Origin: Alphaproteobacteria bacterium
Lineage (GTDB): Bacteria; Pseudomonadota; Alphaproteobacteria; GCA-2731375
Assembly: GCA_965225945.1 (NCBI GenBank)
Contig: CBDDBZ010000021.1
Span: 46,538-110,537 of the forward strand
Direction of reading: 5' to 3'
Length of the DNA: 64,000 nt
Shown: positions 15,701 through 64,000 of the stretch, one piece after another
Layout: each line of letters opens with the position of its first letter
Numbering within the stretch: the stretch's first letter is position 1
Notes under the pieces: generated by a model
The model's input: the letters and a program-made list of their open reading frames with translations, nothing else
The model's database searches: none
What the model was told of the DNA's origin: nothing
Program-made: the position numbers and the translations under genes

Positions 15701-17308
15701 AACGAGCCGCTGGAGCATCCCGACCCGGCGGAGGGCGGCGATACGGAGAACACTCTGACCTTGAGCGGCGTCGGCTTCGTGGCGACGGACTCGGACGGCG
15801 ACCCGACGCCGGCGGCGAGCTTCGACGTGACGATCGTCGACGACATTCCGTCGATCGATTCCGCCATCGACGGCATCTTGGCGAGCGAATCGGGGAACGC
15901 GCTCAGCGGAACCTACGAAGCCGACTTCGGCGCCGACGGGCTCGACCTGCTGACCGTGGCGCTGGGCAACGCTGTGACCGACTTCGCCTTCACGGAGTTG
16001 GCTCCGGTCGGCGGCGTGACCCAGGTCAACGTGACGCCGACGGCGGGCGACGACTTCACCTTCTACTACACCAAGACGGATGGTGGGGTCGGCACGCCGG
16101 CGCTGCTCGAGGCCTACGGCGATCTCGCCCTCTCCGAAGTCAATCGGTTCTTCACCATGGCGGTGAACGACGACGGGACCTATGATTTCGATCTCCACAG
16201 CAACGCGATCGCCACTCGCACGACGACCGATTTCAGCACCGTCGATCCCGGCATCAAGGATCAGCTCCACCTGCCGTCGGGGACCGAGGATCCGCCGGCC
16301 GACGGGATTTTCTCGGTGCTGGTCGACGCGCTGGCGCCGGACAGCAACGGAGTTCTGCAGGACGTCCGGGTCAACACCTCAACGCACGGCATCGGCGCCT
16401 CGAACCAGAACACGGTTCAGGGCGAGGTGGTGACCTTCGACTTCCGGAACGATCAGTCCTTGGTCCGCTTCGACGTCACCAAGTGGCAATCCGGCGCGGC
16501 GGTGCTGACCATCATCGTGACCCTGGCGGACGGCTCCACCCACACCGAGGACGTGCCCGTCACCAAGACCAGCGGCGGTAGCGATCCGACGGTCGAGGTG
16601 GTGTTTGGCACGCTCCCGACGGGCCTGGCCGACGCGGCGGTGGTCGTGGCTCAGGAATTCGACCATATCGACGTCGTGTACAAGACCGGCACCGAGAACA
16701 TCAACTACAACAACCTGGAGTTCGACCAGGAGTTCATCGTCGACGACCTGGCCTTCAACTTCACGCTGGGGGCCACCGACAACGATGGCGACACGGCCAC
16801 GCTCACGGATGCGGTGATGATCGATATCGAGAGCTACGTCGACGCGGGCGACAGCATCGTCGGCAGCGGCGATGGCGAGGCGATCGCCGGTGGCACCGGC
16901 GACGACACGCTCACGGGCCTCGGCGGCGACGACTTCCTGTTCGGCGGCGCCGGCGACGACGAGCTCTCGGGTGGGACCGGCGACGACGTCTTCTTCTCCG
17001 ACGCCGCCGCCCTTGCCGACGGCGACGGGACGGGCCTCACCGATCACGACGTCATCCTCGACTACGAGGCCGGCGACACCATCGATCTCGATGCCCTGTT
17101 CGATTTCCTCGATCCCGATCGCACGACGGATGTGAATACGGATCCGGTCGTGACGGAGGACAATTCGATCGACCGCACAGGCGACAGCACGATTGACACC
17201 CTGATCACGGTCACCGACGAGAGTGGCGGCGCCGTTTCGGACTTCTCGATCGTGCTGAACGACTTCACCGGTACCGTCGACATAGACGAAGGCACCGGCG
17301 GCGTCTGA
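9779..17308 (+). CDS. giant acidic T1SS-secreted RTX adhesin (LapA/BapA-like) with tandem Ig/cadherin-like domains
   Basis: 2509 aa Asp/Thr/Val-rich; N-terminal EAAAGG retention-module-like motif; DxDGSE and DSDGD...VTIVDDIP repeats; C-terminal GGxGDD Ca-binding nonapeptides; no Sec signal. Confidence 0.9.
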   Translation: MMADSIETTGMNESAGTTTGMAENLAAVDDSVLVGAEGQVTAVGQADLGETVEVTDESQEIAVDPGDDFVLPEGIASGDIQYSQFEGSLVIVLPSGSEITFTDFFVIASQQEEGGLPPVLTLADGTVMDPPLVIAQIADFDPNAVEAAAGGGGGTGGNASFSPYASGDIGPGDAALDLLGNLPGFPFDLGNLEEEFLDEAGGLFQVVTALSQVVPVGLPTDLPSSVTGLISGDFDGGFEDALPNQHLGAVDAANETKTQLVIEFVPDDDEVVESFAVEGIPLDVRIFIRPLDGGADVELAHDGSVTVPGSLLNNIFLIPPEDNDADIPLSFSAVVVDPQNPTNPVTLTGTFTVVIDAVADVPSVGPTGTGGGFVAGAIPSVEGEAGGTVAVNLDVVSNDIDGSETTAVQLFFSSPQNFTAADFDVIAVGAELVVPEDGSPPFWVVPQEGFAGLQIVVPESATETVDVFAFGVATETLITGEELTFDNNQASTKKAVAFQIALEGELIVNIGNPTFLETETDDVLTISFADLQVSATLGGAGRPDLVESVTATFENLPDGAVILDASGNVVATASGGTISVTAPSLDDFNALTLQLPADFATPGPGGVIDPGDISGTVVVESPVAVLNPQPGSIAIDVAVEGDIDVTAAPETTAEDQNLATISDGAGNSVTLNVVVLNLAAVATDADGSETVQTATVTFNDVPAGTGVLFFGTAGATIATVERSVNPDGTEDLVVSNLSPAELATLRLGVPEDYSGTITGNVVSAFTDEQGEDSATFMVVVTPTPVLVLPSENIGGSGLDQETDQPITVDLNLSAAITDGDGSEVLTSITVTFDQLPAGTTASGGTLTGLVWSGTQAELSALALTFPTDYSSEDGGVINGSLRVTTDEGGDQTVGFTVPVLPEEDLDVVANDVTVPESDTGVTVNLSLSATVTDQDGSEVVDSVTVTFTGLPAGSSVNGGTLVGGVWSGTAVELAALQLTLPASFTGDITGLLNTGLLNATSDEGGNESAPFTITVDAMPDVIAVDDVTVDEDGFETANLDDSPLRPGEVDSTESTTGTGTITVDFEADVPATLDGSLRLLDSPALDGQLTTLDGGSVSFTSPDGGLTLVGTVPDGEGTREVLTIAVQTGASASGTEVTYTYVATLNEPLEHPDPEEGGNTENTLTLSGVGFVATDSDGDPTPAASFDVTIVDDIPLAVNDATTTAEDTQVTYNVITNTDGTSDASGADAPLTLVSAGLSSGSGSVSFASNGDVTFTPANGFEGDAVIAYTIEDQDGDRSSATLTVTVGDDSTPIVTLDEDVTVDEDGLSGANLDGTPLRTGEVDSTEDDTATGTIKVDYLNAADVPGTPDGSLKLLDSAALDGQLTTLDGLSVSFALDGDQKLVGSVTDGQNVTREVLTIEVQTGASASGTEVTYTYVATLNEPLEHPDPEEGGNTENTLTLSGVGFVATDSDGDPTPAASFDVTIVDDIPLAVDDATTTAEDTQVTYNVITNTDGTSDASGADAPLTLVSAGLSSGSGSVSFASNGDVTFTPANGFEGDAVIAYTIEDQDGDRSSATLTVTVGDDSTPIVTLDEDVTVDEDGLSGANLDGTPLRTGEVDSTEDDTATGTIKVDYLNAADVPGTPDGSLKLLDSAALDGQLTTLDGLSVSFALDGDQKLVGSVTDGQNVTREVLTIEVQTGASASGTEVTYTYVATLNEPLEHPDPEEGGNTENTLTLSGVGFVATDSDGDPTPAASFDVTIVDDIPLAVDDATTTAEDTQVTYNVITNTDGTSDASGADAPLTLVSAGLSSGSGSVSFASNGAITFTPANGFEGPAVIDYTIQDQDGDQSSASLTVTVGDDSTPVVTQDDDVTVDEDGFQSANLDGTPTLRPGEVDSTELTAATGTIKVDYQNAADVPGTLDGSLRLLDSVALDGQLTTLDGGSVSFTSPDGGLTLVGTVPDGEGTREVLTIAVQTGASASGTEVTYTYVATLNEPLEHPDPAEGGDTENTLTLSGVGFVATDSDGDPTPAASFDVTIVDDIPSIDSAIDGILASESGNALSGTYEADFGADGLDLLTVALGNAVTDFAFTELAPVGGVTQVNVTPTAGDDFTFYYTKTDGGVGTPALLEAYGDLALSEVNRFFTMAVNDDGTYDFDLHSNAIATRTTTDFSTVDPGIKDQLHLPSGTEDPPADGIFSVLVDALAPDSNGVLQDVRVNTSTHGIGASNQNTVQGEVVTFDFRNDQSLVRFDVTKWQSGAAVLTIIVTLADGSTHTEDVPVTKTSGGSDPTVEVVFGTLPTGLADAAVVVAQEFDHIDVVYKTGTENINYNNLEFDQEFIVDDLAFNFTLGATDNDGDTATLTDAVMIDIESYVDAGDSIVGSGDGEAIAGGTGDDTLTGLGGDDFLFGGAGDDELSGGTGDDVFFSDAAALADGDGTGLTDHDVILDYEAGDTIDLDALFDFLDPDRTTDVNTDPVVTEDNSIDRTGDSTIDTLITVTDESGGAVSDFSIVLNDFTGTVDIDEGTGGV
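12845..15850 (+). repeat. near-identical about 828-bp (276 aa) internal repeats of the adhesin, about 3.6 copies
   Basis: GAGCGGCACGGAGGTGACCTACACCTACGTGGCG recurs near 13174, 14002, 14830 and 15661. Confidence 0.92.
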
Positions 17309-43189: not shown

Positions 43190-44157
43190 TCAGGCAGCGC
43201 TTACGGCATGTCTTTGATTTTGCATTTGTCCGAACATATCTAAATCAAAGTCGAATTTCTCCGCCAGAGTTCGGAGCTTAAACAATTGGGTGCTAGTAAA
43301 TAACTTCGACCCTCGACCGGAAATTCCTATATTTTCGTTGAGTTTTTCTTTCAAACGCGAGGCGTTTCTAAATTTTTGGATCACTTCCTCCACAAACTCC
43401 TTCGGTATTTCATGACCAAGGAACTGAATCAGCTGCACAATCAACGCAGATTCATCCATCAATAAATTTTCATAAGACACGAAGAAGACGTCGAGATCGT
43501 GTCGCGCCTTTGCGCAAAACCATGATGTATAATATTGAAAGTACCAGGTAGCCGAAATGTCGATCACAAAATCAAATTTGTATTCCAGTGAGCCAGACAA
43601 AAACTTCCGAACGGCCGTCGAGGGAATCGGCCCTTGAAACGACCCGATATTGCCATGGGCTTCAATTTCGTCGATGTTTAGCGCCCATTGTCTTCCAAAT
43701 TCTTCCTTTTGACTCACCAACGAGTCCGAGATGTCTCGAAGACATATCACTGGGATAACATTAAAAAGATCCAGCATCCGCAGTGTGTGCGGATTGGCCA
43801 TGAGGTGTGCATGGGTGATAAATTTATCATGACTGGAAGTCAAGGCCAGCATTGTGGTGAAGTCTATTTCATTGACAACGTGAAGCAGACTCTTTTGCTC
43901 CAAATCCCGATCATAATCCAAAAGAATAGACCGCTGCGGTAGGCGCAAGACATCAGAAATAATATTAAATATGAATTTCGTAGCACTTTTGGAAGGGCCA
44001 AAAACACCCATGTAAAACCGCCATCAGTCAGTTTGCAATTGTGCGAAATATGATGAACAAACTCTGAAAACTGCGCTCTATCGAACTCGAATACCTTATC
44101 GTAGTCCAAGTTTGTATCCGCCATATTCATATTCCGAAATCCGTTTGTATCACTCAA
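43190..44157 (-). pseudogene. low-GC sulfotransferase-like gene, frameshifted in an A-run near 43988
   Basis: Adding one A joins the two ORFs into WVFLALPKSATKF (5'-PSB-like); also LRDISDSLVS and VSYENL motifs. Confidence 0.6.
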
Positions 44158-45060: not shown

Positions 45061-45390
45061 TCAATCGACGATGAAGAGCTTGGCCCCGATCTCGCTCGAG
45101 GAGCGATGCGCCTCCGCCCGGTCGGCGACCTGATAGGACATCCCCGGCCCTATGGTGAAGCGGCGGCCGTCGCTGAGCTCGGTCTCCAGACGGCCCTCCA
45201 GCACCAGCAGCACATGGCCCTTCTCGCACCAATGATCGGCCAGGTAGCCGGGCGTGTATTCGACCATGCGGACCCGGATCTCGCCATAGAGGCGGGTCCG
45301 CCAGATGGCCTTTCCGGTGGTGCCTGGATGCTCGCTCGGCGCCACCTCGTCCCAAGCCTGGACGGTGAAAGGGATATCGCTCATTCGCAT
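45061..45390 (-). CDS. DHCW-motif cupin protein
   Basis: [21 protein letters not shown]...GAKLFIVD. Confidence 0.88.
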
Positions 45391-45481
45391 CTCGTTCGCT
45401 CCCCTTGCCTCGCATTTCCCGGCCGTGTACTCGGTGGTGGCCCGCCCCGGGCGGCGCGCGCATCCAGCGGGAGCCAGCCTC

Positions 45482-45958
45482 ATGAGCTATACCCGACTCT
45501 ATCCCGTTTCGTGGGAACAATTTCATCGCGACGCCAAGGCGCTCTCGTGGCGCCTGGCCGACGTGCGCGAATTCGCCGGCATCGTCGCCATCACCCGGGG
45601 CGGTCTGGTGCCGGCGGCGATCGTCGCCCGCGAGCTCGACCTCAGGCTGATCGATACGATCTGCGTCCGCTCCTATCGCGACACCAGCCGGGACGCGCCG
45701 GAGATGATCAAGCCGCTCGAATCGGACGACGAGAGCTGGCTGATCGGCGACGATCTGGTCCACACGGGCGGCACCGCGCAGGTGGTGCGCCGGATGCTGC
45801 CGAACGCCCACTATGCCACGGTCTACGCCAAGCCCGAGGGGCGCCCGATGGTCGATACCTATGTCACCGAGGTGAGCCAGGACACCTGGATCCTGTTCCC
45901 TTGGGACAGCGAGCTACGGCCGGCCCGCACCGTCGTCGAATTGACCCAGGACGAATGA
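45482..45958 (+). CDS. gpt: xanthine phosphoribosyltransferase
   Basis: [51 protein letters not shown]. Confidence 0.9.
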
Positions 45959-45976
45959 GCCGGGGCACGCCCGCCC

Positions 45977-47161
45977 ATGATACGGGATCGCGCCGTCCTT
46001 TATCTCGGCATCGCCCAGACCTTGGCCTGGGCCGGGATGTTCTATGTCTTCCCGGCATTGCTGTTGCGCTGGGAGGCGGCCTTGGGCTGGTCCAGGGCGG
46101 AGCTCACCGGCGCCATAACCGTGGCGCTGTTGCTCTCGGCCCTGGCCTCGCCGCTGGCGGGCCGGCTGATCGACGCCGGCCGTGGCCCCGTGATGCTGGC
46201 GGGCGCCACGTTGCTCGGCGGCGTCTCTTTGATCGGCCTCTCGGTCGTGACGGAGGCCTGGCAGTTCTATCTCGTCTGGGCGCTTCTCGGCGTGATGATG
46301 GGGGGCTCGCTCTACGATCCTTGCTTCGCGCTGCTGACCCGGGCGCGCGGGGCCGAGGCGAAGCGGAGCATCATCCAGATCACCTTGATGGCGGGTTTCG
46401 CCAGCACGATCAGCTTCCCGGCGGCCCATGCCCTGGCGGACGCCTACGACTGGCGGGTCGCGGTGCGAATTTTCGCGGTCGTCGTCATCATCGTCGGCGC
46501 GCCGCTGATGTGGGCGGGCGCGCGCTCGGTGGAACGCGCCGGCAAGCACGGCGGTGGCGCGCCGTTGGCGGCGGCGGGGCGCCGGCCGGCGATCTTCGCC
46601 TCGCCGCTATTTTGGCTTTTGGGGATCGGCTTTGCCTTCGCCGCGGTCATTCATGGCGGGACGGTGCAGCATCTGTTGCCGATGCTCGACGATCGCGGGA
46701 TCCGGGCGGATGTCGCGGTGCTGGCGGCGTCCTTCATCGGGCCGATGCAGGTGGCGGGCCGGATCGCCGTGATGGCGGCCGGGCGTCACCTCTCCAACCA
46801 CGCTGTCGCCGTCGGCAGCTTTTTCCTGATGGCCGTGGCGATCCTGTTGCTGTTCGCCTCGGGGGGCGCGCCGCTGCTGGTGGTCGGCTTCGTCATCCTG
46901 TTCGGCGCCGCCGTCGGCACCCTCAGCATCATCCGGCCGGTGATCACCCGCGAGATCATGGGCGAGGCGCATTTCGGCGCCAAGTTCGGCGCCATGTCGA
47001 TGCTCTTTCTGGCGGGCTCCGCCGCCGCGCCCTATCTCGCCTCGCTGCTCTGGAGCGTGGGCGGCTACGACCTGGTCCTGCCCTGTCTCGGGGTCCTGGC
47101 GTTCCTGGGCCTCGGCCTCTATCTCGCCGCCCGGCGCGTTGCGCGCGGGACCAGTCCATAG
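45977..47161 (+). CDS. MFS transporter
   Basis: GRLIDAGRG, LYDPCFALL, ITLMAGFASTI, IGPMQVAGR. Confidence 0.88.
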   Translation: MIRDRAVLYLGIAQTLAWAGMFYVFPALLLRWEAALGWSRAELTGAITVALLLSALASPLAGRLIDAGRGPVMLAGATLLGGVSLIGLSVVTEAWQFYLVWALLGVMMGGSLYDPCFALLTRARGAEAKRSIIQITLMAGFASTISFPAAHALADAYDWRVAVRIFAVVVIIVGAPLMWAGARSVERAGKHGGGAPLAAAGRRPAIFASPLFWLLGIGFAFAAVIHGGTVQHLLPMLDDRGIRADVAVLAASFIGPMQVAGRIAVMAAGRHLSNHAVAVGSFFLMAVAILLLFASGGAPLLVVGFVILFGAAVGTLSIIRPVITREIMGEAHFGAKFGAMSMLFLAGSAAAPYLASLLWSVGGYDLVLPCLGVLAFLGLGLYLAARRVARGTSP

Positions 47162-47178
47162 AGCAATATCCGGACGGG

Positions 47179-47478
47179 CTATTTCGACTTCGGGCTCTGG
47201 CGGCGCCTGGTGGCGCGCGTCTTGGCCGCCGCTTTCGGCGCGCCGGCCTCCAATTCGGCGATGCGCGCGGCCAGGCGCTCGTTCTCCAGCCGGGCCTCGC
47301 GCGCCATCTCCTTCGCCACCTGGAACTCCTCCCGCGTCACCAGGTCCATGCGGTCGAGAAAGCGTTCCAGGCGCTGGCGCGCAAGCCCTTCCGCCTCCTT
47401 GCCGGCGCCCTGGGCGATGCCGGCGGCGGCGGTGGCGAGCTTGGCGAGATCATCGAGCAGTTTTCGCGGCGCGGACAT
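47179..47478 (-). CDS. ubiK: accessory factor UbiK (BMFP) family protein
   Basis: LDDLAKL...MDLVTREEF...AREARLENERLAARIAELE. Confidence 0.8.
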   Translation of the reverse strand: MSAPRKLLDDLAKLATAAAGIAQGAGKEAEGLARQRLERFLDRMDLVTREEFQVAKEMAREARLENERLAARIAELEAGAPKAAAKTRATRRRQSPKSK

Positions 47479-47586
47479 CGGCGAGCTCCCGGCGGTCGGC
47501 GATACTCGGGACTATGCGGCGGCCGGTGGCCGAGGGCAATATGTGGCACCCGTGCGAACCGCCGCCGAGTTGGAGCATCCCCGTTC

Positions 47587-48468
47587 ATGTCCGCCACGCA
47601 TCCGCGACGCCTGCACGTCTACGACGGTCCGCTCGTCGAGGGAAAACGCTGGGACCACTACGTCGCCCGCGACGACGACATCTTCATCTGCACCCCGCCC
47701 AAGTGTGGCACCACCTGGATCCAGGCGATCTGCGCCCTGCTGATCTTCGGCCGGCCCGATTTGGCCGTGAAGCCGGGCGTCGTCTCGCCCTGGATCGACA
47801 CGAACCTGACGGTGCTGGAGGATACCCTGGCGATGCTGGAGGCGCAGACCCATCGCCGCTTCATCAAGACCCACACGCCGCTCGACGGCATCCCGTTCCT
47901 CGCGGGCCACGTCTATCTCACGGTCTACCGCGATCCGCGCGACGTCTTCCTCTCCTGGCGGGCGCACGCCGGCAACCTGAAGAGCGGAATTACCGACAAC
48001 CGCCTGGCGCTGGACGTGAACGAGGGCTTCCGCCAATGGTGCCGGGCGCCGTTCACGCCCCCCGCCGCCGAGGGATTTTGCCTGGCGCGGATCGTCCATC
48101 ACTATCGAGGCTTCAAGGCCTTCGCGCATCTCGACGAGATCCACTTCCTCCACTACGCCGACATGAAGCGGGACTTGCCGGGGGCGATGGCGCGGATCGC
48201 CCGCATCCTCGGCCTCGACGTGGGGGAGGCGTTGCTGGGCGAGCTGGCGGCCGCGGCCGGTTTCGACAACATGAAACGCAACGCGGAACAGTTCGTGCCG
48301 GATGCCGGCCGTCTCGAATGGCGCAGCACGGACGCGTTCTTCGCCAGCGGCGCCAACGCGCAATGGCGCGAGGTCCTGCGCGCCGAGGATCTCGACCTCT
48401 ATGACGCGCGAATGCGCGAGCTGTTGCCGGGCGACGAGATCGCCTGGCTACAGGCGGGCGAGGGTTGA
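47587..48468 (+). CDS. sulfotransferase domain protein
   Basis: DIFICTPPKCGTTW, RRFIKTHTP, RDPRDV, HYADMK. Confidence 0.9.
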   Translation: MSATHPRRLHVYDGPLVEGKRWDHYVARDDDIFICTPPKCGTTWIQAICALLIFGRPDLAVKPGVVSPWIDTNLTVLEDTLAMLEAQTHRRFIKTHTPLDGIPFLAGHVYLTVYRDPRDVFLSWRAHAGNLKSGITDNRLALDVNEGFRQWCRAPFTPPAAEGFCLARIVHHYRGFKAFAHLDEIHFLHYADMKRDLPGAMARIARILGLDVGEALLGELAAAAGFDNMKRNAEQFVPDAGRLEWRSTDAFFASGANAQWREVLRAEDLDLYDARMRELLPGDEIAWLQAGEG

Positions 48469-52132: not shown

Positions 52133-53589
52133 TCTATCGCGTCCTCGGTCAAGCCCTTTCTGGTTACGTCATGCCATATTCCTTCTTCACGTCGTTCCGC
52201 ACTGGCGGATGTTGCCGCACGGGGCTCTTGCTTCTCTTCGAGGTTGGCGCGTGGCCACCTCATGATGGGATCAGAGGATGAGGCGGTTCAATCTTTCGCG
52301 CGTCCTTGCCGCCGGTCAGCGGCAGGGTCTACCGACATTACGAACTCACCCCACCCGTCGTTCCCGTGAGGACATCTCTCTGCCTAAGCAGAACTCGTTG
52401 ATCTCCTTGTCAGTACAGTCGAAGGTTCAATCCGCCTTGACGGCGTCAGCAGGGCCGTTGCTCCAGCGGAACTCGGTGCCGTCGACCCACATGCGGTGCA
52501 GAACTACGGCCAGGCGCCTCGCGACGGCGACGATGGCACGGCGCATGCCACGTCGCTGGGCCACTCGCATGCCCCACGCCTTCAGCCAGGACCATTTCCG
52601 GCCGTGGGCGAGGAGGGACTGCGCGGCCTCGTACAGCATCGTGCGGAGCATGCTGTCGCCGCACTTGGACACGCGACCATCATAGTCGATCTCGCCGGAC
52701 TGGAAGCGCTTCGGCGTCAGGCCGACATGCGCGCCGACCGCCCTGGAGTGAACGAAGCGCTGCGGCTGATCAATGGTAGCCCGGTAGGTCAGCGCGACGA
52801 CCACGCCGACGCCGGGTGCCGTCACGAGCCGTCGGCAGACCGGGTCATGGCGGACCGTGTCGAGCACCATTTTGTGGAGGACCGCGAACTGCCGGCGCAT
52901 CACTCGCCGGACGGTGAGCAGCGGTTCCACAATAGCGGCCAGCTTCGGAAAGTCTTCGACCAGCTCGCGGATCCGCGCCTCGTACCCGCGGGTGCTGACC
53001 ATGCCCACCTTGAGACCGAAGTTGCGCAGCGTCCCGCGTAGATCGTTCTCGACGTCGAGCAGTTTTCTCTGGAGCAGCTTGCGGCTGGTCAGCAGCATCC
53101 GCTGCTCCTGGGCAACCAGGGTCTTCACATGCACCGGCTTGAACAGCCCGACCCGCATCATCTGGGCGATGCCGCGCGCATCGTTGCGGTCGCTCTTGTT
53201 GATCTGCTGCCCCTTGAGCAGTGCTTTCATGTGCCGAGTCTCGACGCAGACAACCGGCAGCCCGGCGGCGGCAAGACCGTTGACCAGCCATTGCGAGAGC
53301 GGACCGGCTTCGATCCCGATCCGGCCATAGGCCACGCCGATCGAGGTCAGCAGCGTGACGATGTCGTCCGGCTCGGTCGGTACTTTCCGCTCCAACACCA
53401 CCTCGCCAACCTCGTCGACGACGCATACCGCCGTCTCCTTCACCGAAACATCCAGACCTACGAAATGTGCCATCGTCATCGCTCCTTCCTCGATGTTCGA
53501 GGTCAGGGCGACCCCGATTTATCGATCATGCGTGAAGGGGCTGCCATCATCCTGATATCATCAGCCACAGCCGCCGCGATATACCATCT
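52133..53589 (-). mobile_element. IS110-family (IS1111-like) insertion sequence
   Basis: Transposase plus subterminal inverted repeats TATCGCG/CGCGATA, an AGA core at both ends and about 290 bp of non-coding sequence downstream of the gene; ends are inferred. Confidence 0.7.
52427..53479 (-). CDS. IS110 family transposase/recombinase
   Basis: FVGLDVS, GIEAG, KSDRNDA, APGVG, GLTP..FQSGE..GRVSKCGD, AVARRLA. Confidence 0.95.
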   Translation of the reverse strand: MTMAHFVGLDVSVKETAVCVVDEVGEVVLERKVPTEPDDIVTLLTSIGVAYGRIGIEAGPLSQWLVNGLAAAGLPVVCVETRHMKALLKGQQINKSDRNDARGIAQMMRVGLFKPVHVKTLVAQEQRMLLTSRKLLQRKLLDVENDLRGTLRNFGLKVGMVSTRGYEARIRELVEDFPKLAAIVEPLLTVRRVMRRQFAVLHKMVLDTVRHDPVCRRLVTAPGVGVVVALTYRATIDQPQRFVHSRAVGAHVGLTPKRFQSGEIDYDGRVSKCGDSMLRTMLYEAAQSLLAHGRKWSWLKAWGMRVAQRRGMRRAIVAVARRLAVVLHRMWVDGTEFRWSNGPADAVKAD

Positions 53590-53690: not shown

Positions 53691-54945
53691 TCATCCTTTT
53701 AATTTAGGCTTCCATGCCATCGCCAAGGCGGAAACGACCGAACCCAATGCCATGACCGCGAATGCCCAAAGCCAGGCCACGGGCTCGTCGCGGCCACCAC
53801 CCAGGTCGACCACCAACCCGACGGCAAGAGGGCCAAGAAAACCAAATGTGAAACCGACCATGCCAAACAGGGCCAGAGCCGCCGCCCGTGTTGCTCCCGT
53901 TGAAGCCGCCACAACGCCGCCAGCGATGGCGCCGACATCGCCATAGCTGGTAACGCTGTGAATCAACAGCATGGCAAGTACGAAAACATAGGGTCCGGAC
54001 GCCTGCCAACCAAGCATGCCGCAAGCCAAGACAGACGCAAGCGATACCGCGAAAATGACAGGCTTGCGACCCCATCTGCCCCCCAGCTCCGCAATGGCGA
54101 GGTTCAACGGTACCGCGATAACTACAGATCCCCAGCTCCGCAATGGCGAGGTTCAACGGTACCGCGATAACTACAGATAGCGCAGCAACCGTAGTCGGAT
54201 TCCAATCCAGCGAGGTATTCTCGTTTAGCGCCGCATTGTAAGCCAAGAACGGAACGAACCAAACACGAATGGCGAAAACCTCCCAGAGATTTCCAGCATA
54301 GGCGATGACATAACGAACAATCTCTGCATCTCGGAGCGCCTCTCCGAAATCGGGAAACAATCTACCTGACCGAGTTTCGTTCCCATCCAACGGCGGACCG
54401 ATCAAAAGAAGTGTCGGCAGAGACAGCAAGGACCCGATGCCGGCCGCCACGAATGCGGCCTCCCACCCCAGCGACCTCGAAAGCAGACCAGCGACCATGA
54501 ACGAGCACCCGCTGCCGACTGCAAAAGCACCCGTGTAATAAGCACTGGCACGGGTTTGCGGTTCACCGACCAAACGGTCCGCAAGCATTTTCATTCCGAC
54601 GATATGAATGCCGGCAAAGCCAATTCCAGCCACAAAACGCAAAACGAGCGCCCACCAGAACCCATCGGCAAATAGCGCAACGCTAAAGGAAGCGACCGTG
54701 CTGATGAGTGCCGCGACGGCATAGACAATGCGCCCATCCATCCGGTTGGCGGCGCCGGTCAGGAAAGGCAACGCGACGGCGTAACCCGAAAAATATATCC
54801 CGCCGAGCCATCCAATCTGCGAAGCGTCCATTTCCCATAGGATCGCTAACTCCACGGAGAGCGCTGGAACCGCCACAATCGGTAACTGGCCAAGTATGAG
54901 GCCCACTGACATCGAAAAGATAATTAAAACCGGTGATCGACTCAT
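53691..54945 (-). pseudogene. MFS transporter frameshifted by a 49-bp tandem duplication
   Basis: 54081-54129 repeated at 54130-54178; the C-terminal helices continue in ORF 53691-54143. Confidence 0.85.
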
Positions 54946-55050
54946 CAATTCGTTATCATGCAGCAATGCATTCCCTTTATTGTCGAGCCAGCTCGGGCGC
55001 GCGGATTACAGGAATCCCCCCGCCGAGCCAGCGTCCCGTCTCGAGTGTGA

Positions 55051-55175
55051 TTACCGCTGCCCTGATATTTTGTCCAACAACACGTGACGGAGGATCTTCC
55101 CGGCCGCATTGAGCGGCATTTCGTCGACGAAGTAGATACGCTCCGGGCACCGGTAGCTGGCAAGGTGGTAGGCCT
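55051..55175 (-). pseudogene. C-terminal remnant of an AMP-binding (acyl-CoA ligase) enzyme
   Basis: LASYRCPERIYFVDEMPLNAAGKILR (A10 motif); upstream part replaced by a REP/RAYT remnant. Confidence 0.7.
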
Positions 55176-55186
55176 GGGTCAGGCCT

Positions 55187-55480
55187 GGGGTGAGGTCCTG
55201 CATCTTGTTTTGGCTCGTGCTTCCCATGCCTTGATGATCCTGTTGCCGGAGGAATAGTGCAGGCCCGCCTCGTCGGCGATCCGGCGCATGGTGTAGCCAT
55301 GGTCGCGATAGGCCCGCGCCAACCATTGCGCGCGATCGCGCTCGCAGAGGGCGTCGAGAGTTTCGGGCGCGGCGCCCGTCAGCGGAACTTCCGAACGCGC
55401 CGTCCGCGCCGCCTCGCGGAGGCCGCCCGGGAACGCCTCGCCACCCACGACAGGCCGATGCAAAATGCAAGACCTGACCA
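55187..55480 (-). mobile_element. internally deleted RAYT-like element bounded by REP-like inverted repeats
   Basis: GGTGAGGTCCTGCATCTTG and TGCAAAATGCAAGACCTGACC flank AYRDHGYTMRRIADEAGLHYSSGNRIIK, a RAYT-type C-terminal HTH. Confidence 0.6.
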
Positions 55481-55599
55481 CAAATTCCATACCCATATGG
55501 GTGACGACGGGCCTACACCGTAATGATCTAAATTGGCTGTAAGCGGATGCGAGGCCGAAAGGCGATCCGGCAACGTTTCATTTATGATAGGTTGAGAAC

Positions 55600-55965
55600 A
55601 TGACCTCGAAACGGAACACGCGGCCGCGCGCCGGCGAAGAACTGAACCGCCGCCAAGCCTTGGCACGGCTTGGGCTCGGCGTCACGGCGGTCTATGCGGC
55701 GCCGGTGCTGCTGACCTTAAGCGAAGCCAAGGCCAGTGCGAGCTCGGGTGGTGGCTCCGGCGGTACTGGCGGATAGGGTGGCTCCGGCGGTACTGGCGGT
55801 ACTGGCGCGAGCGGTGCTTCTGGCGCTTCCGGTGCTTTAGGCGGCAGCGGGCCATCCGGTCCGAGTCTGCCCTCAATTCCAAGCACGGCGTCGGCCCCCA
55901 GCACGGCTTCCGGCCCCAGCCAGGCGTCGGGACCAAACGGACCCTCGGGCTCGATCCTCCTGTAA
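55600..55965 (+). CDS. putative RiPP-like Ser/Gly-rich precursor with RR/YxxPxL leader; in-frame TAG at 55774
   Basis: MTSKRNTRPRAGEELNRRQALARLGLGVTAVYAAPVLLTLSEAKA-SASSGGGSGGTGG*GGSGGTGGTGASGASGASGALGGSGPSGPSLPSIPSTASAPSTASGPSQASGPNGPSGSILL; not in the ORF track. Confidence 0.7.
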
Positions 55966-56046
55966 TTCGAGACGGGCAACGCAAATCGCTCGCACGGAAC
56001 CGCTTTCACCAACGCCTGGATGGCGCGGTGAGGGAGGCGTGACAGC

Positions 56047-57264
56047 GTGAGCGACGACTCGGTGAAGGTGACCTTCAATCGACTTTCAGCCCCGGTCGAG
56101 ATCGCCCGGGACGATCGCCTGCTGGCCTGCCTGGAACGAATCCTGCCGGGCTGGCACTTCCTCGAGAACGAAAACGCGGGCCCTGCAAGCACCAAGCTCC
56201 ACGGCCGCAAGTATGGCTATCACCTGACGTCGCCCCGGCTCGAAAAATCGAAGCGATACCAACACGAAGTCGACGCGGTCTGCGCCCTCATCGTCGAGCT
56301 CGTCTGGGGCTACCTCGAGGAGCATCCAGAGCTGCTATGCCTGCACGGCGCGGCGGCCGAGTTCTCCGGCAGGCTCGTGGTCTTCCCGAGCCGCTATCGG
56401 GCCGGCAAGAGCCTGCTCTCGGCGGCCCTGGCGGCCAGGGGCGTGCGCCTCTTTGCCGACGACGTTCTGCCGGTTCTCCGGCCGGCGCCGGGTCAGGCCG
56501 TAAACGGCATCGCGCCCGGCATCCAGCCGCGTCTGCGCCTGCCCCTGCCGGACAATCTGGATCGCCTGACCCGAGACTTCGTCACTCGCCGGCGCGGGCC
56601 GGAAAGCAAGCGCTACCGCTACCTCGCGCTGACGGCGGAGGAATTGGCTGCGGCCGGCGAGAGCGCCCCCATCGGCGCCTTCGTGCTGCTGGAGCGAGAC
56701 GACGATGCGTCCCTGGACTTGTCGCCGCTCGCCGCCGACGAGGTCCTGCGTCACGTGATCTGGCAGAATTTCGCCCGCGACCGCGGGGCTGCCCGCATCT
56801 TGGACGAGCTCCACGGCGCCGTCGTGGCGGGCCAGCACTATCGCCTGCGCTACAGCTCCACCGATGCGGCGGCGGCGCTGCTGCTGCAACGGTTCATGGC
56901 CTGGGAAATCTCAGGGATCACCGAGGAGGCGCCGCGCGCGTCCCCGCCTGCCTCGGACCCCTCGCCCGGCGCCGATCCGCTCCCGCCGAGCAGCTATCTT
57001 CGGCGCCCGGAAGTGGTCGAGAAGACCGTCGGCGACGAACAGTTCCTAGCCGAGCTCGACGGCACCCGGATCTATCATTTGAACCCGACCGCGGCGGCCG
57101 TCTGGCGTCTCTTGGCCGAACCTCGGACCGAGGCCGAAATAGTCGAGATCGTCCAGGCCGCCTTTCCCGAGGTCGATCGGAGACGAATCCAAGCGGAGAT
57201 CGGGGCGCTCATCGAAAGCCTCCGCGCCAAAGGACTTCTCGTCGGCGCCCGAGCGGTCGAATAG
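56047..57264 (+). CDS. HPr kinase-like P-loop protein fused to a C-terminal PqqD/RRE domain
   Basis: LHGAA, RAGKS, FADDVL kinase-like motifs; C-terminal IYHLNPTAAAVWRLL...EIVEIVQAAFPEV...LIESLRAKGLL PqqD signature. Confidence 0.85.
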   Translation: MSDDSVKVTFNRLSAPVEIARDDRLLACLERILPGWHFLENENAGPASTKLHGRKYGYHLTSPRLEKSKRYQHEVDAVCALIVELVWGYLEEHPELLCLHGAAAEFSGRLVVFPSRYRAGKSLLSAALAARGVRLFADDVLPVLRPAPGQAVNGIAPGIQPRLRLPLPDNLDRLTRDFVTRRRGPESKRYRYLALTAEELAAAGESAPIGAFVLLERDDDASLDLSPLAADEVLRHVIWQNFARDRGAARILDELHGAVVAGQHYRLRYSSTDAAAALLLQRFMAWEISGITEEAPRASPPASDPSPGADPLPPSSYLRRPEVVEKTVGDEQFLAELDGTRIYHLNPTAAAVWRLLAEPRTEAEIVEIVQAAFPEVDRRRIQAEIGALIESLRAKGLLVGARAVE

Positions 57265-57301
57265 CGGACAGGGTACCGCGGATCCGTGCCCCGGGCTCAG
57301 T

Positions 57302-57810
57302 TCAGATACTCTGGCGCTTCGTTGTCGAGAATACGGCGGCGCGTCGGTCGAGATTGTGGAGATTGTCGGGAAGTGGCGCTGCGGCATCATCCGAGTCTAT
57401 GGTGTTGGAGTCGATTTGCTCGGCTTGCTGCAATGACCAGCGCCACACATGCACCGGCCGGGCAATGTTCTTCGATTCCTGCACACACAGATCCTCGAAC
57501 ACTGCATCCAGTCGATCGCGAACGTCCTCATGGACCCGACGTGAAATGGCGATGCCGCCGGGTTCGGCGATCTCCTGCAAGCGTGCGGCGACGTTCATGC
57601 CGTCTCCCAGAATGTCCTCACCGACGATGATAATTTTGCCCAGGTTGACGCCCACGCGGAAGGTGATGCGCGTGTCCTCCGGCTCCTCTGCGCTGCGTGC
57701 CGCCATGCCTTCCTGAACTTCGGCAGCGCATTGCGTAGCGTTCGCGACCGATGGGAAATCCAGCAGCAGTCCGTCGTCCATCGTCTTGACGATGCGTCCG
57801 CCGTGATTTC
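57302..57810 (-). pseudogene. class III adenylate cyclase fragment
   Basis: HGGRIVKTMDDGLL, FRVGVNLG, GDGMNVAARLQ, KNIARPV; N-terminus missing and motifs degenerate. Confidence 0.75.
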
Positions 57811-59805: not shown

Positions 59806-61077
59806 GTGCGGTATTTCCTCTATATCTCGCCCTTCTTCCCGCCGTTGGCCCGCACCGGCGCGTTCCGGGCGTTGAAGTTCACCCGTCATCTGCCGGACCA
59901 GGGCTGGCAACCGGTGGTGCTGGCCGACCTCTGGCCCGGCGCGGCGGTGGACGCGGCGCTGGCCGAGGCGGTGCCGGGCGACACCCCGGTGGTGCACGAT
60001 TATGGGCCGAGGGCGGCCGAGGCGATTCTGGCCGCGGCCCCGCCGCTGCCACGTGCCGCTGGCCGGCCCTCGCCCGCCAGGCCGGCGGGCCTCTTTCGCG
60101 GGCGGGAATGGCTGCCGCTCGGCGCGGCGGCGTTCGCCATCCCCCATGCGCTCCGCGCCGCCCGGCGCGTGCTGGCGGCGCACCCGGTCGAGGCGATCAT
60201 GGTCAACGCCGATCCGGTCGCGGCGCTGGTGGTGGGCGAGCGACTGGCGGCGGAGAGCGGACTGCCGCTCGTCGCCGATCTCCGCGATCCCTGGGGTCCC
60301 TGCGAGCTCCGCCGTCCGCTCCGCCCGGCGACGACGCGGGCGATCGAGGGTCTCGCCGAGCGCCGCGTGGTGCGGCGCGCGGCGGCCGTGATCCTCAACA
60401 CCGAGACCACGGCCGACGACTACCGCCGCCATTACCCGAACGTCGCGGCGAAACGCTTCAGCTTCATCCGCAACCACGGCGATGGCGCGTTGATCCGCTC
60501 AGGCGAGGCACCGGCGCCCGCCTTCGAGGTCTTCACGCTATTGTTCCTGGGCGGTTTCAGCCGCTTCGTCCGGCCGGACCCGCTGCTGGCGCTGCTGGCG
60601 GAGCTGAAACGTCGCGGTCACGGGCCGGAGGCGGTTCGCCTGGCGCTGACCGAGCGGCTCGACGTCGAGAGCGAGCGGCGGGCGGAGCAACTCGGCCTCG
60701 CCGCGATGATCGAGACGGTCGGAAACCTGCCCTACCGCGACGTCGGCAAACTGATCGACGCGGCCGACGTGGGGACCCTGATCGCGCCCAGCCGCCAGCG
60801 GGTGCAGGCCAAGTTCTACGACTACGTCACCGGCGAGCGGCCGATCCTGGCGATCGGCGAGAGGCACCCGGAGCTCGACGCGATCCTGAGCGAGACCGAG
60901 GCGGGCCGGCGGATCCGACCGGGCGCGGTGCCGGAGATGGCGGATTGGGTGGAGCGCCATCTGGCCCGGGGCCGCCATCCGACGGCGCCGCGTCCGCCCG
61001 GGGCGAGGCGGGAATTTTCCAGCCCGCGCGCGGCGGAACGCCTGGCGCGGCTGCTGGAAAAGGTGGCGGGCCGGTGA
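59806..61077 (+). CDS. glycosyltransferase (GT-B, GT4-like)
   Basis: ISPFFPP..GAFRALKFTRHL, PLVADLRDPW, KFYDYVTGERPILAI. Confidence 0.8.
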   Translation: MRYFLYISPFFPPLARTGAFRALKFTRHLPDQGWQPVVLADLWPGAAVDAALAEAVPGDTPVVHDYGPRAAEAILAAAPPLPRAAGRPSPARPAGLFRGREWLPLGAAAFAIPHALRAARRVLAAHPVEAIMVNADPVAALVVGERLAAESGLPLVADLRDPWGPCELRRPLRPATTRAIEGLAERRVVRRAAAVILNTETTADDYRRHYPNVAAKRFSFIRNHGDGALIRSGEAPAPAFEVFTLLFLGGFSRFVRPDPLLALLAELKRRGHGPEAVRLALTERLDVESERRAEQLGLAAMIETVGNLPYRDVGKLIDAADVGTLIAPSRQRVQAKFYDYVTGERPILAIGERHPELDAILSETEAGRRIRPGAVPEMADWVERHLARGRHPTAPRPPGARREFSSPRAAERLARLLEKVAGR

Positions 61078-62036
61078 GCGCGGGGGCACGAATCGACGTC
61101 GTCTACACCTGGGTGGACGATAGCTTCCCGGGCTATGGCGAGGAGATGGCGCGCCATGCCGGCACGGTGCACGACCGCAACCCGAACCGGACGCGGGACA
61201 ACCTCGAATTGCTGAAATACAGCCTGCGCGGCCTCGCCCGCCGGGTGCCGTGGGCCGGCCGGGTGCATCTGCTCACCTGCCGGCCGCAGCTGCCGGATTG
61301 GCTCGATTGCGAGGCGCCGGGGCTCCGCATCCACCACCATGACGAAATCATGGATTCCACGATCCTGCCGACCTACAACTCCTTCGCGATCCTGAGCCAC
61401 CTGCATCTGATCCCCGGCCTCTCGGAGCGCTTTCTCTACGTCGAGGACGACATGCTGTTCGACGCCGAGGTGGCGAGAACGCATTTCCTGGCGCCTGACG
61501 GGCGGATCGTGGTGCGCCGCCGGCTCGGCCGGACGGCGCATCCGTCGCGTCGCGACGACGAGACGACGTCGCCCTGGAACGCCTCGCTCGCCCGGGCCAA
61601 CCATCTGCTGGACACCGCCTTCGGGGCCGCGCCGCGCCACGTCGTCAACCACGTGCCGCTGTTGATCGACAAGGCCATCTGGACCGAGATGCTGGCGCGC
61701 TGGCCGGACGAGGTCCGCCTGACGCGGGAGAGCCGCTTTCGCCGCGCCGGCAACATCGCGCCCGAACACCTCTACCCCCACTACCTGCTGGCGATCGGTG
61801 TCGGCATCGCAGCACCACTCGCCGAGACCTATCGCCGAACGCTCTATTTCGGCCTCGGGAACAGTTTGGCGATGGCCCGCCTCGCCATGGCGCTGATCCG
61901 CCTGATGGCCCCGCGCACGCTGGCGCTCAACGACAATTTCGACGCTTCACCCAACCCGCGCGTGGTCGCCGCCGTCCGCGCCTTTCTGGAGCGGCGCTAT
62001 CCGATGCCTTCCCCGTTCGAAAAGGCGTTGCTCTAG
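61074..62036 (+). CDS. Stealth family hexose-phosphate transferase
   Basis: IDVVYTWVD (CR1), LKYSLR...PW, PTYNSFAI..LHLIPGLSERFLYVEDD (CR2), HVPL, LND...SPFE. Confidence 0.88.
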   Translation: MSAGARIDVVYTWVDDSFPGYGEEMARHAGTVHDRNPNRTRDNLELLKYSLRGLARRVPWAGRVHLLTCRPQLPDWLDCEAPGLRIHHHDEIMDSTILPTYNSFAILSHLHLIPGLSERFLYVEDDMLFDAEVARTHFLAPDGRIVVRRRLGRTAHPSRRDDETTSPWNASLARANHLLDTAFGAAPRHVVNHVPLLIDKAIWTEMLARWPDEVRLTRESRFRRAGNIAPEHLYPHYLLAIGVGIAAPLAETYRRTLYFGLGNSLAMARLAMALIRLMAPRTLALNDNFDASPNPRVVAAVRAFLERRYPMPSPFEKALL

Positions 62037-62869: not shown

Positions 62870-63970
62870 CTATTCGCGGAAGCTTATAAGGAGACGCGGC
62901 GGCCAGTTTCGGTATGCCCTCTTGCGCCCGGTTGGATTGGGGTCGACATAGGTAATTCGTCCACGTTCCAGCAGCGCTTCAAGCTCGACTCTCGCGCGAC
63001 TTGAAAGAAATGTAGTGTGCTCGTCAACCCATTTAAAGATCTCGGATACCGGCACATCGGTTTGGGCTTGAAAGCGTTCCGCGAGAAATTTAGAAAGCCT
63101 TATGGTCTGCGGTGACAGTTCGAAAATATTCCCTTGGGCTGAAACATTGGTGGCTTCTCGGTGATGCGAGAACGAGGCTCCATGCTCGGGATCTACCTTC
63201 CACATTGCTTCCTTCATCTTCACAAAACCTCGGACATTTCGCCCGCAAAAGAAGAATGCGTTGTCGCGACCATTTGTCTCATCACGCATCATAAATTTTC
63301 TCACGAATGGACCGAGCGTCAAAAGCCGACTTTCGAAGGCATCACAAAAAGCATCTGTCGAATCATCTGCATTCTTGATCGGTCTAAGGTCGTTAACGCC
63401 AACCATCGACTTGATCTTTGCAGTAATCTCTTCGTTCTCGTGCTCCTTAAAGCGATTCATGAAGCCGCACATGAAATTTATGAATAGCTCGCTGTGGTCG
63501 TTGTGCATGAGCTGTTTCAATGCTTTAAACGGGCTATGTCCGAATCCAAACGGGTCAATGAAGCTAAATGTAGGGCTGGACGTATGTATCCGAAGGTAGT
63601 CAATGATTTCGGCTATATTCTCAACAAACACACCATGTTTGATCTCGATGGTTACATTGGGGTGATGCTCTTTCACGGCAGCGGTCGAACGTAAATGTTC
63701 CAAACCTTCCAAATCTAAATCAACGAAAAACAATGTCGCCCGAAAGCCTGGGTTGCGTATTACCGTTTCGTTGGCAAGATAGGCGGCGATGACGGGTGAA
63801 CCGTCCTCCCCGGTCGTATACGCGCCCGGGCCACAAAATCCATCGACATACACGACATGTGGGAAGCCCCTGTTAGCGAGGATGCCGAACCAGGCGCCGA
63901 GATAGTTTCTTATGATCTCAAGTTTTGCCCTTGTTCTCGGTGTGCACTCCCAAAGTGGTTCATCGGCCAC
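62870..63970 (-). CDS. tcmP: three-Cys-motif partner protein (TcmP-like), lower GC
   Basis: TRAKLEIIRNYLGAW, YVDGFCGPG..Y...GSP, FSFIDPFG, ELFINF, GFVKMKEAMWKVDP. Confidence 0.8.
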   Translation of the reverse strand: MADEPLWECTPRTRAKLEIIRNYLGAWFGILANRGFPHVVYVDGFCGPGAYTTGEDGSPVIAAYLANETVIRNPGFRATLFFVDLDLEGLEHLRSTAAVKEHHPNVTIEIKHGVFVENIAEIIDYLRIHTSSPTFSFIDPFGFGHSPFKALKQLMHNDHSELFINFMCGFMNRFKEHENEEITAKIKSMVGVNDLRPIKNADDSTDAFCDAFESRLLTLGPFVRKFMMRDETNGRDNAFFFCGRNVRGFVKMKEAMWKVDPEHGASFSHHREATNVSAQGNIFELSPQTIRLSKFLAERFQAQTDVPVSEIFKWVDEHTTFLSSRARVELEALLERGRITYVDPNPTGRKRAYRNWPPRLLISFRE

Positions 63971-64000
63971 GATCTATAAGGCCGCCCGCTAGTCCATTGG

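Follow-up and report, generated by a model that had tools for sequence, protein, structure and literature searches.

Within a 64,000-nucleotide stretch assembled from an Alphaproteobacteria bacterium (NCBI GenBank assembly GCA_965225945.1, contig CBDDBZ010000021.1, positions 46,538 to 110,537 of the forward strand; hereafter the window, whose own numbering is used throughout), we find two adjacent genes that form a conserved module. One encodes a putative substrate with a twin-arginine leader; the other encodes a 405-aa protein that joins an HPr kinase-like (HprK-like) P-loop domain to a PqqD-type recognition element (RRE) for peptides that are synthesized ribosomally and modified post-translationally (RiPPs). 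By analogy with described systems, and with a probability of roughly 0.6, we read the pair as a substrate and its modifying enzyme, in which the RRE-docked kinase would phosphorylate Ser residues and the leader would double as a signal peptide.

The substrate gene of the window starts with an ATG at position 55600 on the plus strand and, as the initial annotation had claimed, encodes a leader (46 residues, MTSKRNTRPRAGEELNRRQALARLGLGVTAVYAAPVLLTLSEAKA) followed by Ser/Gly-rich sequence (SASSGGGSGGTGG in the translated list of open reading frames, ORFs). The same annotation had taken the frame to be open to 55965, and this does not hold. An in-frame TAG at 55774–55776 follows codon 58 and leaves a truncated gene (55600..55776) that consists of the leader and 12 Gly/Ser/Thr-rich core residues (SASSGGGSGGTG followed by G). 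The stop lies within a 27-bp tandem duplication (55750..55803, plus strand; copies at 55750–55776 and 55777–55803, with 23 of 27 bases identical in a repeat search), whose first copy closes with the TAG (GGA TAG) where the second reads GGT ACT; arrays called by Tandem Repeats Finder (TRF) at 55759–55807 overlap the duplication. Past the stop, the frame continues for 62 codons of G/S/T/A/P repeats (55777..55965, plus strand) to a TAA at 55963–55965, and this stretch is probably the cut-off remainder of a core of originally ~120 aa. The repeat core described initially was thus right for its Ser/Gly-rich start, and its S-G-A and S-x-P repeats lie in the 62 codons past the overlooked TAG. If the peptide is read through with X at the stop, residues 2–118 align with upstream ORFs of other loci, in low-complexity matches.

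The part of the leader that is conserved between loci runs from R17 to A46 (RRQALARLGLGVTAVYAAPVLLTLSEAKA; 55648..55737, plus strand) in an alignment of 30 precursors with a fixed RR-to-Y offset. It combines a twin arginine, a YxxPxL motif inside a moderately hydrophobic stretch, a near-invariant Ser41 and an AxA site. Scored against a leader profile built from other genomes, the window leader reaches 69.7 bits (E 8e-21), and no other match in the 64 kb, translated in all six frames, exceeds 8 bits. The leader is without a curated family: Pfam gave no match for the window peptide and low-complexity noise only for 30 homologs, and NCBIfam returned for the precursors weak matches to TatB_1, formate_TAT and TafF, all far under cut-off. 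An antisense ORF of 172 aa (55692–56210) was rejected as a gene, being the complement of the Gly/Ser repeats and overlapping both genes of the module.

The pairing is seen across a broad set of loci, collected by scanning one genome per species; 121 candidate stretches were obtained, 84 of which encode a relative of the 405-aa protein, and the best 80 were kept. Their hosts are Alpha- and Gammaproteobacteria and Thermodesulfobacteriota, and cultured carriers include Shinella sp. (plasmids), Paracoccus marcusii (plasmids) and Mesorhizobium sp. KR9-304. Of the 68 loci with upstream DNA of more than 700 bp, 65 have a leader-profile match on the same strand at no more than 1500 bp upstream, and the upstream peptide that had been predicted for the kinase–PqqD homologs is therefore present. 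The 12 loci with at most 700 bp upstream were excluded from this count; an upstream leader is seen in 2 of them and a downstream one in 4. In one locus outside the 65 (L017), the leader position is masked by N and the Gly/Ser tail is present after it. Over the 786 kb searched, the profile gave 101 matches of at least 25 bits, 100 of them on the kinase strand. The distance from leader start to kinase start has a median of 465 bp (~400 bp in the window), and at least two leader-bearing ORFs are found in 26 loci. We note that the profile was derived from these same loci; the independent evidence is the window leader's own score given above and a tblastn search with the window peptide, in which ORFs with the leader and a Gly/Ser-rich tail adjoin kinase homologs, mostly on the same strand. 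The recurrence in 65 of 68 loci across phyla leads us to reject a chance adjacency of peptide and kinase–RRE.

The enzyme family itself is large. A word-indexed search gave 267 relatives of the 405-aa protein, and those listed cover mostly 94–100% of the query (a few 79–85%) at 40–53% identity; an exhaustive search yielded 1756 representatives when the limit was E ≤ 1e-3 and 358 representative clusters (50% identity) when it was E ≤ 1e-30. Where the relatives bear names, these are only "PqqD family protein" or "hypothetical protein", and neighbours in the ESM Atlas are named only PqqD family, so that the kinase half and the substrate family are invisible to annotation. Most loci have kinase and RRE in one fused gene; in 19 of 80, a kinase gene of ~295 aa and a PqqD gene of ~100 aa stand side by side. 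In a quick tree, 19 of the 20 rows labelled as split fall in one clade (Shimodaira–Hasegawa-like approximate likelihood-ratio test, SH-aLRT, 90); a check of the labels found L077 to be merely cut by the contig end and L072 to be truly split. Four loci (L023, L027, L050, L073) carry two fused kinase–RRE paralogs, for example at 6001–7209 and 7821–9068 of L023. A leader-bearing ORF precedes each paralog in L023, L050 and L073, and the first paralog of L027 stands at the contig start. The second paralog has degenerate kinase motifs, with LCLHG lost and GKS and a D at the DD site kept, and may be a pseudo-kinase partner.

In the window, the 405-aa protein is encoded at 56047–57264 on the plus strand from a GTG start, 81 bp after the TAA that ends the continued frame, in line with the ~80 bp noted initially. 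A Shine–Dalgarno-like GAGGGAGG (56030..56037, plus strand), read from the sequence, stands 9 nt ahead of the GTG, and homologs start at the equivalent position. We divide the protein into (I) a P-loop kinase-like domain of the HprK/phosphoenolpyruvate carboxykinase (PEPCK) fold, residues 1–288 (56047..56910, plus strand), delimited by the alignment, a partial HprK_rel_A match, an AlphaFold2 (AF2) model and Foldseek; (II) a Pro/Ser/Ala-rich linker of low confidence, residues ~289–315 (56911..56991, plus strand), which has a predicted local distance difference test score (pLDDT) below 50 at 289–309, varies in length in the alignment and is the split point in the 19 loci; and (III) a PqqD-type RRE, residues ~316–400, which with the stop codon occupies 56992..57264 (plus strand) and is identified by Pfam PqqD and by profile matches to B1/LppB structures.

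The HprK-like motifs and the C-terminal PqqD-like domain of the initial annotation are both confirmed, with LHGAA at residues 99–103, RAGKS at 118–122 and ADD at 137–139, and with a Pfam PqqD match (PF05402) at residues 334–398 (E 1.7e-15, 57.5 bits vs a cut-off of 23.4). The hidden Markov model search that it had proposed for 56047–57264 thus succeeds for PqqD and gives only a partial match for HprK_rel_A (TIGR04352; residues 85–140, E 7.7e-10, 38.3 bits vs a cut-off of 200). A second HprK-related NCBIfam model, NF003883, scores 11.7 bits vs a cut-off of 252, and lasso-type PqqD chaperone models of NCBIfam also match the protein. In an alignment of 18 sequences, C98-L99-H100, Y117, G120-K121, D138-D139, R162-L163-R164 and N241-F242 are invariant, as are L345-N346, W353 and A372-F373-P374 in the C-terminal part; the H100-G, G120-K121-S and D138-D139 motifs are kept in 18 of 18 sequences. 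An AlphaFold2 model made with 18 family members as input has a mean pLDDT of 87.1 and a predicted TM-score (pTM) of 0.84, with a disordered linker at 289–309. Its best matches in the PDB are ATP-dependent PEPCK and HPr kinase/phosphorylase (HprK/P), at E values from 6e-6 to 5e-4 and query-normalised TM-scores from 0.20 to 0.43 (Foldseek). The modelled P-loop domain is accordingly assigned to the HprK/PEPCK fold, to which its predicted resemblance is distant.

The C-terminal domain is, judged by sequence comparison, an RRE of the lasso-B1/LppB type. A family profile searched against PDB sequences matched TbiB1 (5v1u) at 9.2e-10, LppB (9x8z_B) at 1.1e-7, PbaB1 (9x90_B) at 1.1e-5 and TfuB1 (6jx3) at 1.6e-5, and PqqD itself at only 0.1. 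According to the accessible text of Popov et al. (Nat Commun 2026; PMC13381572), 9X8Z is LppB with leader, 9X90 is PbaB1 with leader, and the nearest solved RRE relatives all bind [Y/W]xxP leaders; the leader contacts of LppB given there involve N33 at the Pro kink, Y60 at the first pocket, D70 in a hydrogen bond to the Tyr and F74 between the pockets. These four residues align with N346, F373, D/E384 and L388, which are invariant or nearly so in the family described here.

The leaders share the consensus D-x-x-RR-x-AL-x-RLGL-x5-Y-x-x-P-x-L-x-T-L-S-x-A-x-A and a fixed architecture of ~30 residues, RR-x13-YxxPxL-x-LS-x-AxA. In the 30 aligned precursors, R17, R18, G25, Y32 and P35 are invariant and L21, L24 and S41 are conserved in at least 90%. 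The first Arg stands exactly 15 residues before the Tyr in all 93 matches to a regular expression that permitted 14–21. Ser or Thr is found at Y+9 (Ser41) in 79 of 89 leaders, and Y32, P35 and L37 take positions −15, −12 and −10 relative to the AxA site. Median Kyte–Doolittle hydropathy is 1.65 over the 17-residue stretch that reaches from LGL to TL. Past the AxA site, a Ser follows within 5 residues in 83 of 89 leaders, and the tails (counted from Y+14 to the next in-frame stop) have a median length of 85 residues. They are composed of 27% Gly, 21% Ser, 10% Ala and 6% Pro, with nearly no Cys, Trp, Phe or Tyr, and their repeats are lineage-specific (GGSGG, SEPSEPT, SEMSEA, SSASSA and SKSRSR, for example).

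The same leader is also found on larger proteins. Peptidase_S8 proteins are headed by it in L063, L077 and L078 (E 1e-24 to 2e-28), and it stands on S8 peptidases from plasmids of cultured Shinella sp. (L081) and Paracoccus marcusii (L082); these peptidases are 420–580 aa long and carry after the AxA site only a short Ser-rich stretch. The gene order in Shinella is an extracytoplasmic function (ECF) sigma factor, the leader-bearing S8 peptidase, a leader-bearing 86-aa "hypothetical protein" and the "PqqD family protein". In Paracoccus marcusii, no annotated precursor stands between the S8 peptidase and the PqqD gene, where only a degenerate leader-like frame is seen. In eight Rhodobacterales loci (L021, L022, L030, L034, L041, L043, L046 and L054), a second leader-bearing protein, Pro/Ser/Thr-rich and with a weak PepSY-like C-terminus, is encoded directly 3′ of the kinase–RRE gene, and the genes for a response regulator and a histidine kinase come next (e.g., L022 7239–9801); through this gene order the module may be connected with envelope signalling. 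Proteins of the S8 peptidase and PepSY-like kinds are normally extracytoplasmic. Finally, in L001 (8608–9297), L002 (8663–9271) and L003 (8608–9279), a ~220-aa protein is encoded beside an ECF sigma factor. Its N-terminus bears a hydrophobic segment of its own, and ~100 residues into the chain the leader motif occurs internally, in a copy whose hydrophobic stretch includes Glu and Asp (RRKALARLGLEDGTPYESPVLLTLS). A search with leader residues 8–47 in a set of 5.8 billion proteins, restricted to longer proteins, gave 6 matches, all unnamed or "hypothetical", with a query so short for the size of the database that the number says little on family size.

The recurrent neighbours of the module are envelope-related and comprise two-component genes (26 loci), lipoproteins resembling the 17-kDa antigen or DUF3108 (18 loci) and ECF sigma factors (10 loci). 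Among the neighbour clusters present in at least 3 of the 80 loci (within 6 kb on either side), we find no signal-peptidase-like protease, nucleoside triphosphate (NTP) transferase, ATP-binding cassette (ABC) exporter, lasso B2 peptidase or cyclase. The sole ABC component among the conserved neighbours is an Opp/Dpp-type ATPase (9 loci), and the neighbour clusters of the 80 loci hold no conserved gene for sugar or nucleotide biosynthesis.

Beyond the gene pairing, domain composition, fold class and motif conservation, which are observed, we infer from the sequences that the RRE binds YxxPxL and that Ser residues past the leader are phosphorylated by the kinase. In the cytoplasm, the YxxPxL stretch would join the RRE as an added β strand and be clamped there, as suggested by the nearest relatives of the RRE, the conserved contact residues and the Y/P/L spacing, and this clamping would place the residues just past the leader at the kinase active site. 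The kinase would then phosphorylate Ser, at several positions of the repeats or, in the way of LppK, by stacking phosphates on one Ser close to the junction. Owing to the LppK precedent and the Ser found near the AxA site in most leaders, the junction-proximal Ser is at least as likely a target as the repeat ladder; we expect it, by analogy, to be at least one target, and multi-site phosphorylation of the repeats, the initial proposal, is possible. A junction-proximal target would also fit the short Ser-rich stretch of the S8 peptidases. Subsequently, the leader would act as a twin-arginine-type signal peptide, the modified protein would cross the inner membrane, and signal peptidase I would cut off the leader at the AxA site. 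With general export and signal peptidase I in use, the absence of a conserved dedicated peptidase or exporter from the neighbourhood would be accounted for.

Of the steps in this mechanism, export is the weakest. A role of the leader as a signal peptide is suggested by its RR, hydrophobic stretch and AxA site, by the secreted-type proteins that carry it and by the lack of a dedicated pump or peptidase among the conserved neighbours. With its presence on S8 peptidases and PepSY-like proteins, it appears closer to an export or sorting signal in shared use than to a classical RiPP leader. A more general form of the mechanism, which we put forward only tentatively and hold to be rather improbable, is a pre-export phosphorylation pathway in which the RRE reads a twin-arginine-type signal and the fused kinase phosphorylates every protein carrying it before translocation. 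If so, the products would be secreted, phosphoserine-rich, disordered polyanions, with S8 peptidases and PepSY-like regulators tagged likewise; general export and signal-peptidase machinery would take the place of a dedicated RiPP peptidase and pump. The boundary between RiPP leader and signal peptide would be blurred, and the pathway would be a bacterial counterpart of secreted phosphoproteins.

Several observations weigh against a substrate and its modifying kinase. Locus L008 has an intact kinase–RRE gene and 6 kb of upstream DNA and no precursor, and in L039 the precursor with its leader is on the opposite strand. Curated twin-arginine translocation (Tat) models hardly recognise the 30 precursors (TIGR01409 in 1 of 30 at E 0.37, formate_TAT in 7 of 30 with a best E of 0.015, Pfam TAT_signal in 0 of 30), and the internal, acidic leader copy in L001–L003 fits recognition by the RRE and not a signal peptide. 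A leader at the head of peptidases of 420–580 aa is also more in keeping with a sorting signal in shared use than with a RiPP leader. An alternative is an export-chaperone explanation. The leader would then be the Tat or Sec signal of a regulon of secreted proteins (Gly/Ser-rich, S8 and PepSY-like), and the kinase–RRE protein would be a proofreading or holding factor resembling the redox enzyme maturation proteins (REMPs), signal-peptide-binding chaperones such as TorD and DmsD. The P-loop domain would serve as an NTPase or in release control, for instance by phosphorylating Ser41 in the leader, and the mature part would stay undecorated. The near-invariance of Ser/Thr at Y+9, the constant spacing of 15 between RR and Y, the PepSY-like carriers and the lack of a conserved dedicated peptidase or exporter nearby all agree with such a factor. 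However, to our knowledge the known REMP chaperones have other folds, the HG, GKS and DD motifs of the HprK type are invariant, and the Gly/Ser-rich tails of most copies, together with the Ser near the AxA site, point to a substrate region after the leader. Moreover, the only characterised HprK-like kinases that partner an RRE phosphorylate the core peptide, as far as the accessible text of PMC13381572 reports, and we consider the export-chaperone explanation unlikely. The kinase assignment itself rests on fold and motifs, the HprK_rel_A match spanning 56 residues and the TM-scores being low. The RRE could still do the targeting for a P-loop domain that is not a Ser kinase; such a domain would put another group on the Gly/Ser-rich tail, for instance as a phosphorylase or as a transferase of nucleotidyl or phosphosugar groups, or would act on a non-protein substrate. 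HprK/P also acts as a phosphorylase, PEPCK with its small-molecule substrate is among the best structural matches beside HprK/P, and the curated HprK-related models match only partially and under cut-off. We nevertheless regard such a different chemistry as quite improbable, since the sequence match around the P-loop is to the HprK-related family, no gene for sugar or nucleotide biosynthesis is conserved with the module, and the pairing of an RRE with an HprK-like kinase is documented, in the same accessible text, to phosphorylate peptide Ser.

A further explanation touches the copy in the window and not the family. The premature stop in the substrate gene also speaks against a working module here, and the gene may be a pseudogene beside a kinase–RRE ORF that persists by chance in a decaying region flanked by an insertion sequence (IS). 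The TAG after codon 58 lies inside a tandem duplication, and the module does sit between mobile or decayed remnants, as had been stated initially. An intact transposase of the IS110/IS116/IS902 family (52427-53479, minus strand; 350 aa, DEDD_Tnp_IS110 and Transposase_20) lies 2 kb upstream. Between it and the module, a major facilitator superfamily (MFS) transporter gene on the minus strand is broken into two frames (53691-54143 and 53704-54966) because of an exact 49-bp tandem duplication (54081-54178, copies 100% identical), in a stretch whose GC content is lower (0.55–0.57) than that of its surroundings. Just upstream of the module follow an HTH_23 (transposase-like) fragment and an overlapping 139-aa ORF (55051-55496, minus strand), and a cyclase-like fragment also flanks it. 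By eye only, the C-terminus of the 139-aa ORF is like that of an acyl-CoA synthetase; Pfam gave no match. A scan of 55000-57700 for promoters and terminators found nothing useful, including no sigma-70-like promoter, and the window protein has a long branch (0.81) in the quick family tree. Against a dead remnant, the 405-aa ORF is full length and keeps all family-invariant residues, the truncated ORF retains the whole leader with Ser47, Ser49 and Ser50, which would be enough if the target is junction-proximal, and the stop could be an assembly error inside the repeat. We thus take a dead remnant to be a serious possibility for this copy, though not the one we favour. A shortened product or ongoing decay is the probable state of the window copy: the 58-aa product may still serve as a substrate, the module may be in decay, or the stop may be an error of the assembly. 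The GC content of the module (0.65–0.71) is like that of the surrounding sequence.

For the substrate and modifying kinase that we favour, the closest described system is the linear polyphosphorylated peptides (LPPs) of Bacillota, followed by phosphorylated lasso peptides of the paeninodin type. As laid out in the accessible text of Popov et al. (PMC13381572), LPPs are made by LppA/LppK/LppB/LppS/LppD/LppN. LppK and LppB phosphorylate a linear precursor, a signal-peptidase-I-like enzyme then cuts the leader, and LppK puts several phosphates on core Ser3, near the leader–core junction. The precursors measure 35–200 aa with the leader consensus YxxPxVLxHQxIxFETxxS, the SipW-like signal peptidase I (LppS) is the gene that defined the family, and LPPs are called restricted to Bacillota. 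Measured against this description, both systems have a linear ribosomal precursor with an N-terminal leader containing YxxPx[V/L], a variable tail, a signal-peptidase-I-type leader site and a Ser near the leader–core junction, both lack a macrolactam cyclase, and both combine an HprK-like kinase with a lasso-type RRE, our family profile matching LppB as given above. LPP genes also co-localise with polysaccharide loci, as stated in that text, and the window has GT4, Stealth and sulfotransferase genes nearby.

The differences from LPPs, as far as that text describes them, are as marked. Kinase and RRE form one polypeptide in most of our loci, whereas LppK and LppB are discrete; the leader here includes, in the manner of a Tat signal, a hydrophobic stretch and a twin arginine that is invariant and stands at a fixed distance, and it is without the HQxIxFET part. 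In fact, the part common to both leader consensuses is only YxxPx[L/V/F], the remainder here being x-T-L-S-x-A-x-A with the RR 15 residues before the Y. The SipW-like peptidase (LppS) is absent from the window locus and from the neighbour clusters in at least 3 of 80 loci, and neither the NTP transferase (LppN) nor the MsbA-like exporter (LppD) is among the conserved clusters. The tails here are Gly/Ser repeats, the hosts are Pseudomonadota and Thermodesulfobacteriota, and the leader also occurs on S8 peptidases. The likeness to LppK is one of HprK-type motifs and fold.

Paeninodin-type phosphorylated lasso peptides reportedly pair an HprK-like kinase with a B1 RRE (work said to be by Zhu et al., JBC, 2016). 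The RRE of our family is homologous to PbaB1, TbiB1 and TfuB1 (PbaB1 at E 1.1e-5). Similarly to the module, the lasso system recruits an HprK-like kinase to a precursor with a [Y/W]xxPxL leader, and the W-15/P-12/L-10 spacing of the paeninodin-like PbaA leader equals that of Y32/P35/L37 to A46 here, with LppA one residue off (Y-16, P-13), all as given in the accessible text of PMC13381572, which describes the acceptor as a Ser of the lasso core. In contrast, the module has no B2 leader peptidase and no lasso cyclase, and its product would stay linear. A lasso cluster, which the initial annotation had also set aside for want of an adjacent cyclase or peptidase, is rejected; the B2 cysteine peptidase and the asparagine-synthetase-like cyclase (C) are absent both from the window locus and from the conserved neighbour clusters.

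Further likenesses concern each half of the module. HprK/P and the in-silico "HprK-related kinase A" (TIGR04352/TIGR04353) share with the P-loop domain the kinase fold and the motif order HG...GKS...DD. However, its scores are far under the curated cut-offs, TIGR04352 is matched only at 85–140 of 280, the N-terminal domain differs from that of HprK/P, and no HPr substrate context is seen here. The leader resembles a Tat signal peptide in its RR motif, moderately hydrophobic stretch and AxA site, for which a cytoplasmic holder before export would be predicted. It differs in that curated Tat models see it at noise level, in that Y and P are invariant inside the hydrophobic stretch, and in that the binder would be an RRE and not a TorD-like fold. 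Open papers searched in full text describe no fused kinase–RRE and no twin-arginine-like RRE leader, and "kinase", "HPr", "phosphoryl" and "twin-arginine" are absent from the main text of two RRE surveys (PMC7470986 and PMC12710340). The fused kinase–RRE family is thus apparently undescribed. What sets it apart is the fusion itself, a leader that resembles a twin-arginine signal and keeps the RR-to-Y spacing fixed, tails of Gly/Ser repeats and the occurrence of that leader on S8 peptidases.

If our reading is correct, phosphorylated linear ribosomal peptides would reach beyond Bacillota into Alpha- and Gammaproteobacteria and Thermodesulfobacteriota, in a minimal two-gene design whose leader may double as an export signal. 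An RRE could then serve whole proteins, such as S8 peptidases, besides peptides. The cultured carriers named above (Shinella sp., Paracoccus marcusii and Mesorhizobium sp. KR9-304) allow direct testing.

The downstream genes of the window for TauD, a luciferase-like monooxygenase, GT4 and Stealth were considered as parts of the module and rejected, as the 80 loci show no recurrence of any of them. A locus for sulfated or phosphorylated polysaccharide around the module is suggested by the GT4 and Stealth genes (59806-62036) together with the sulfotransferase genes. One sulfotransferase-like gene is located at 43190-44011 (minus strand), and a 1120-aa ORF (45106-48468, plus strand) has as its sole recognised part a C-terminal sulfotransferase domain at residues 856–1107. 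Towards the end of the window, the GC content falls to 0.47–0.50 at 63000-64000, compared with ~0.67 elsewhere, and a 366-aa ORF (62870-63970, minus strand) has no Pfam match. At the other end, a 2509-aa ORF (9779-17308, plus strand) with bacterial Ig/cadherin-like and RTX calcium-binding repeats encodes a giant, secreted adhesin-like protein.

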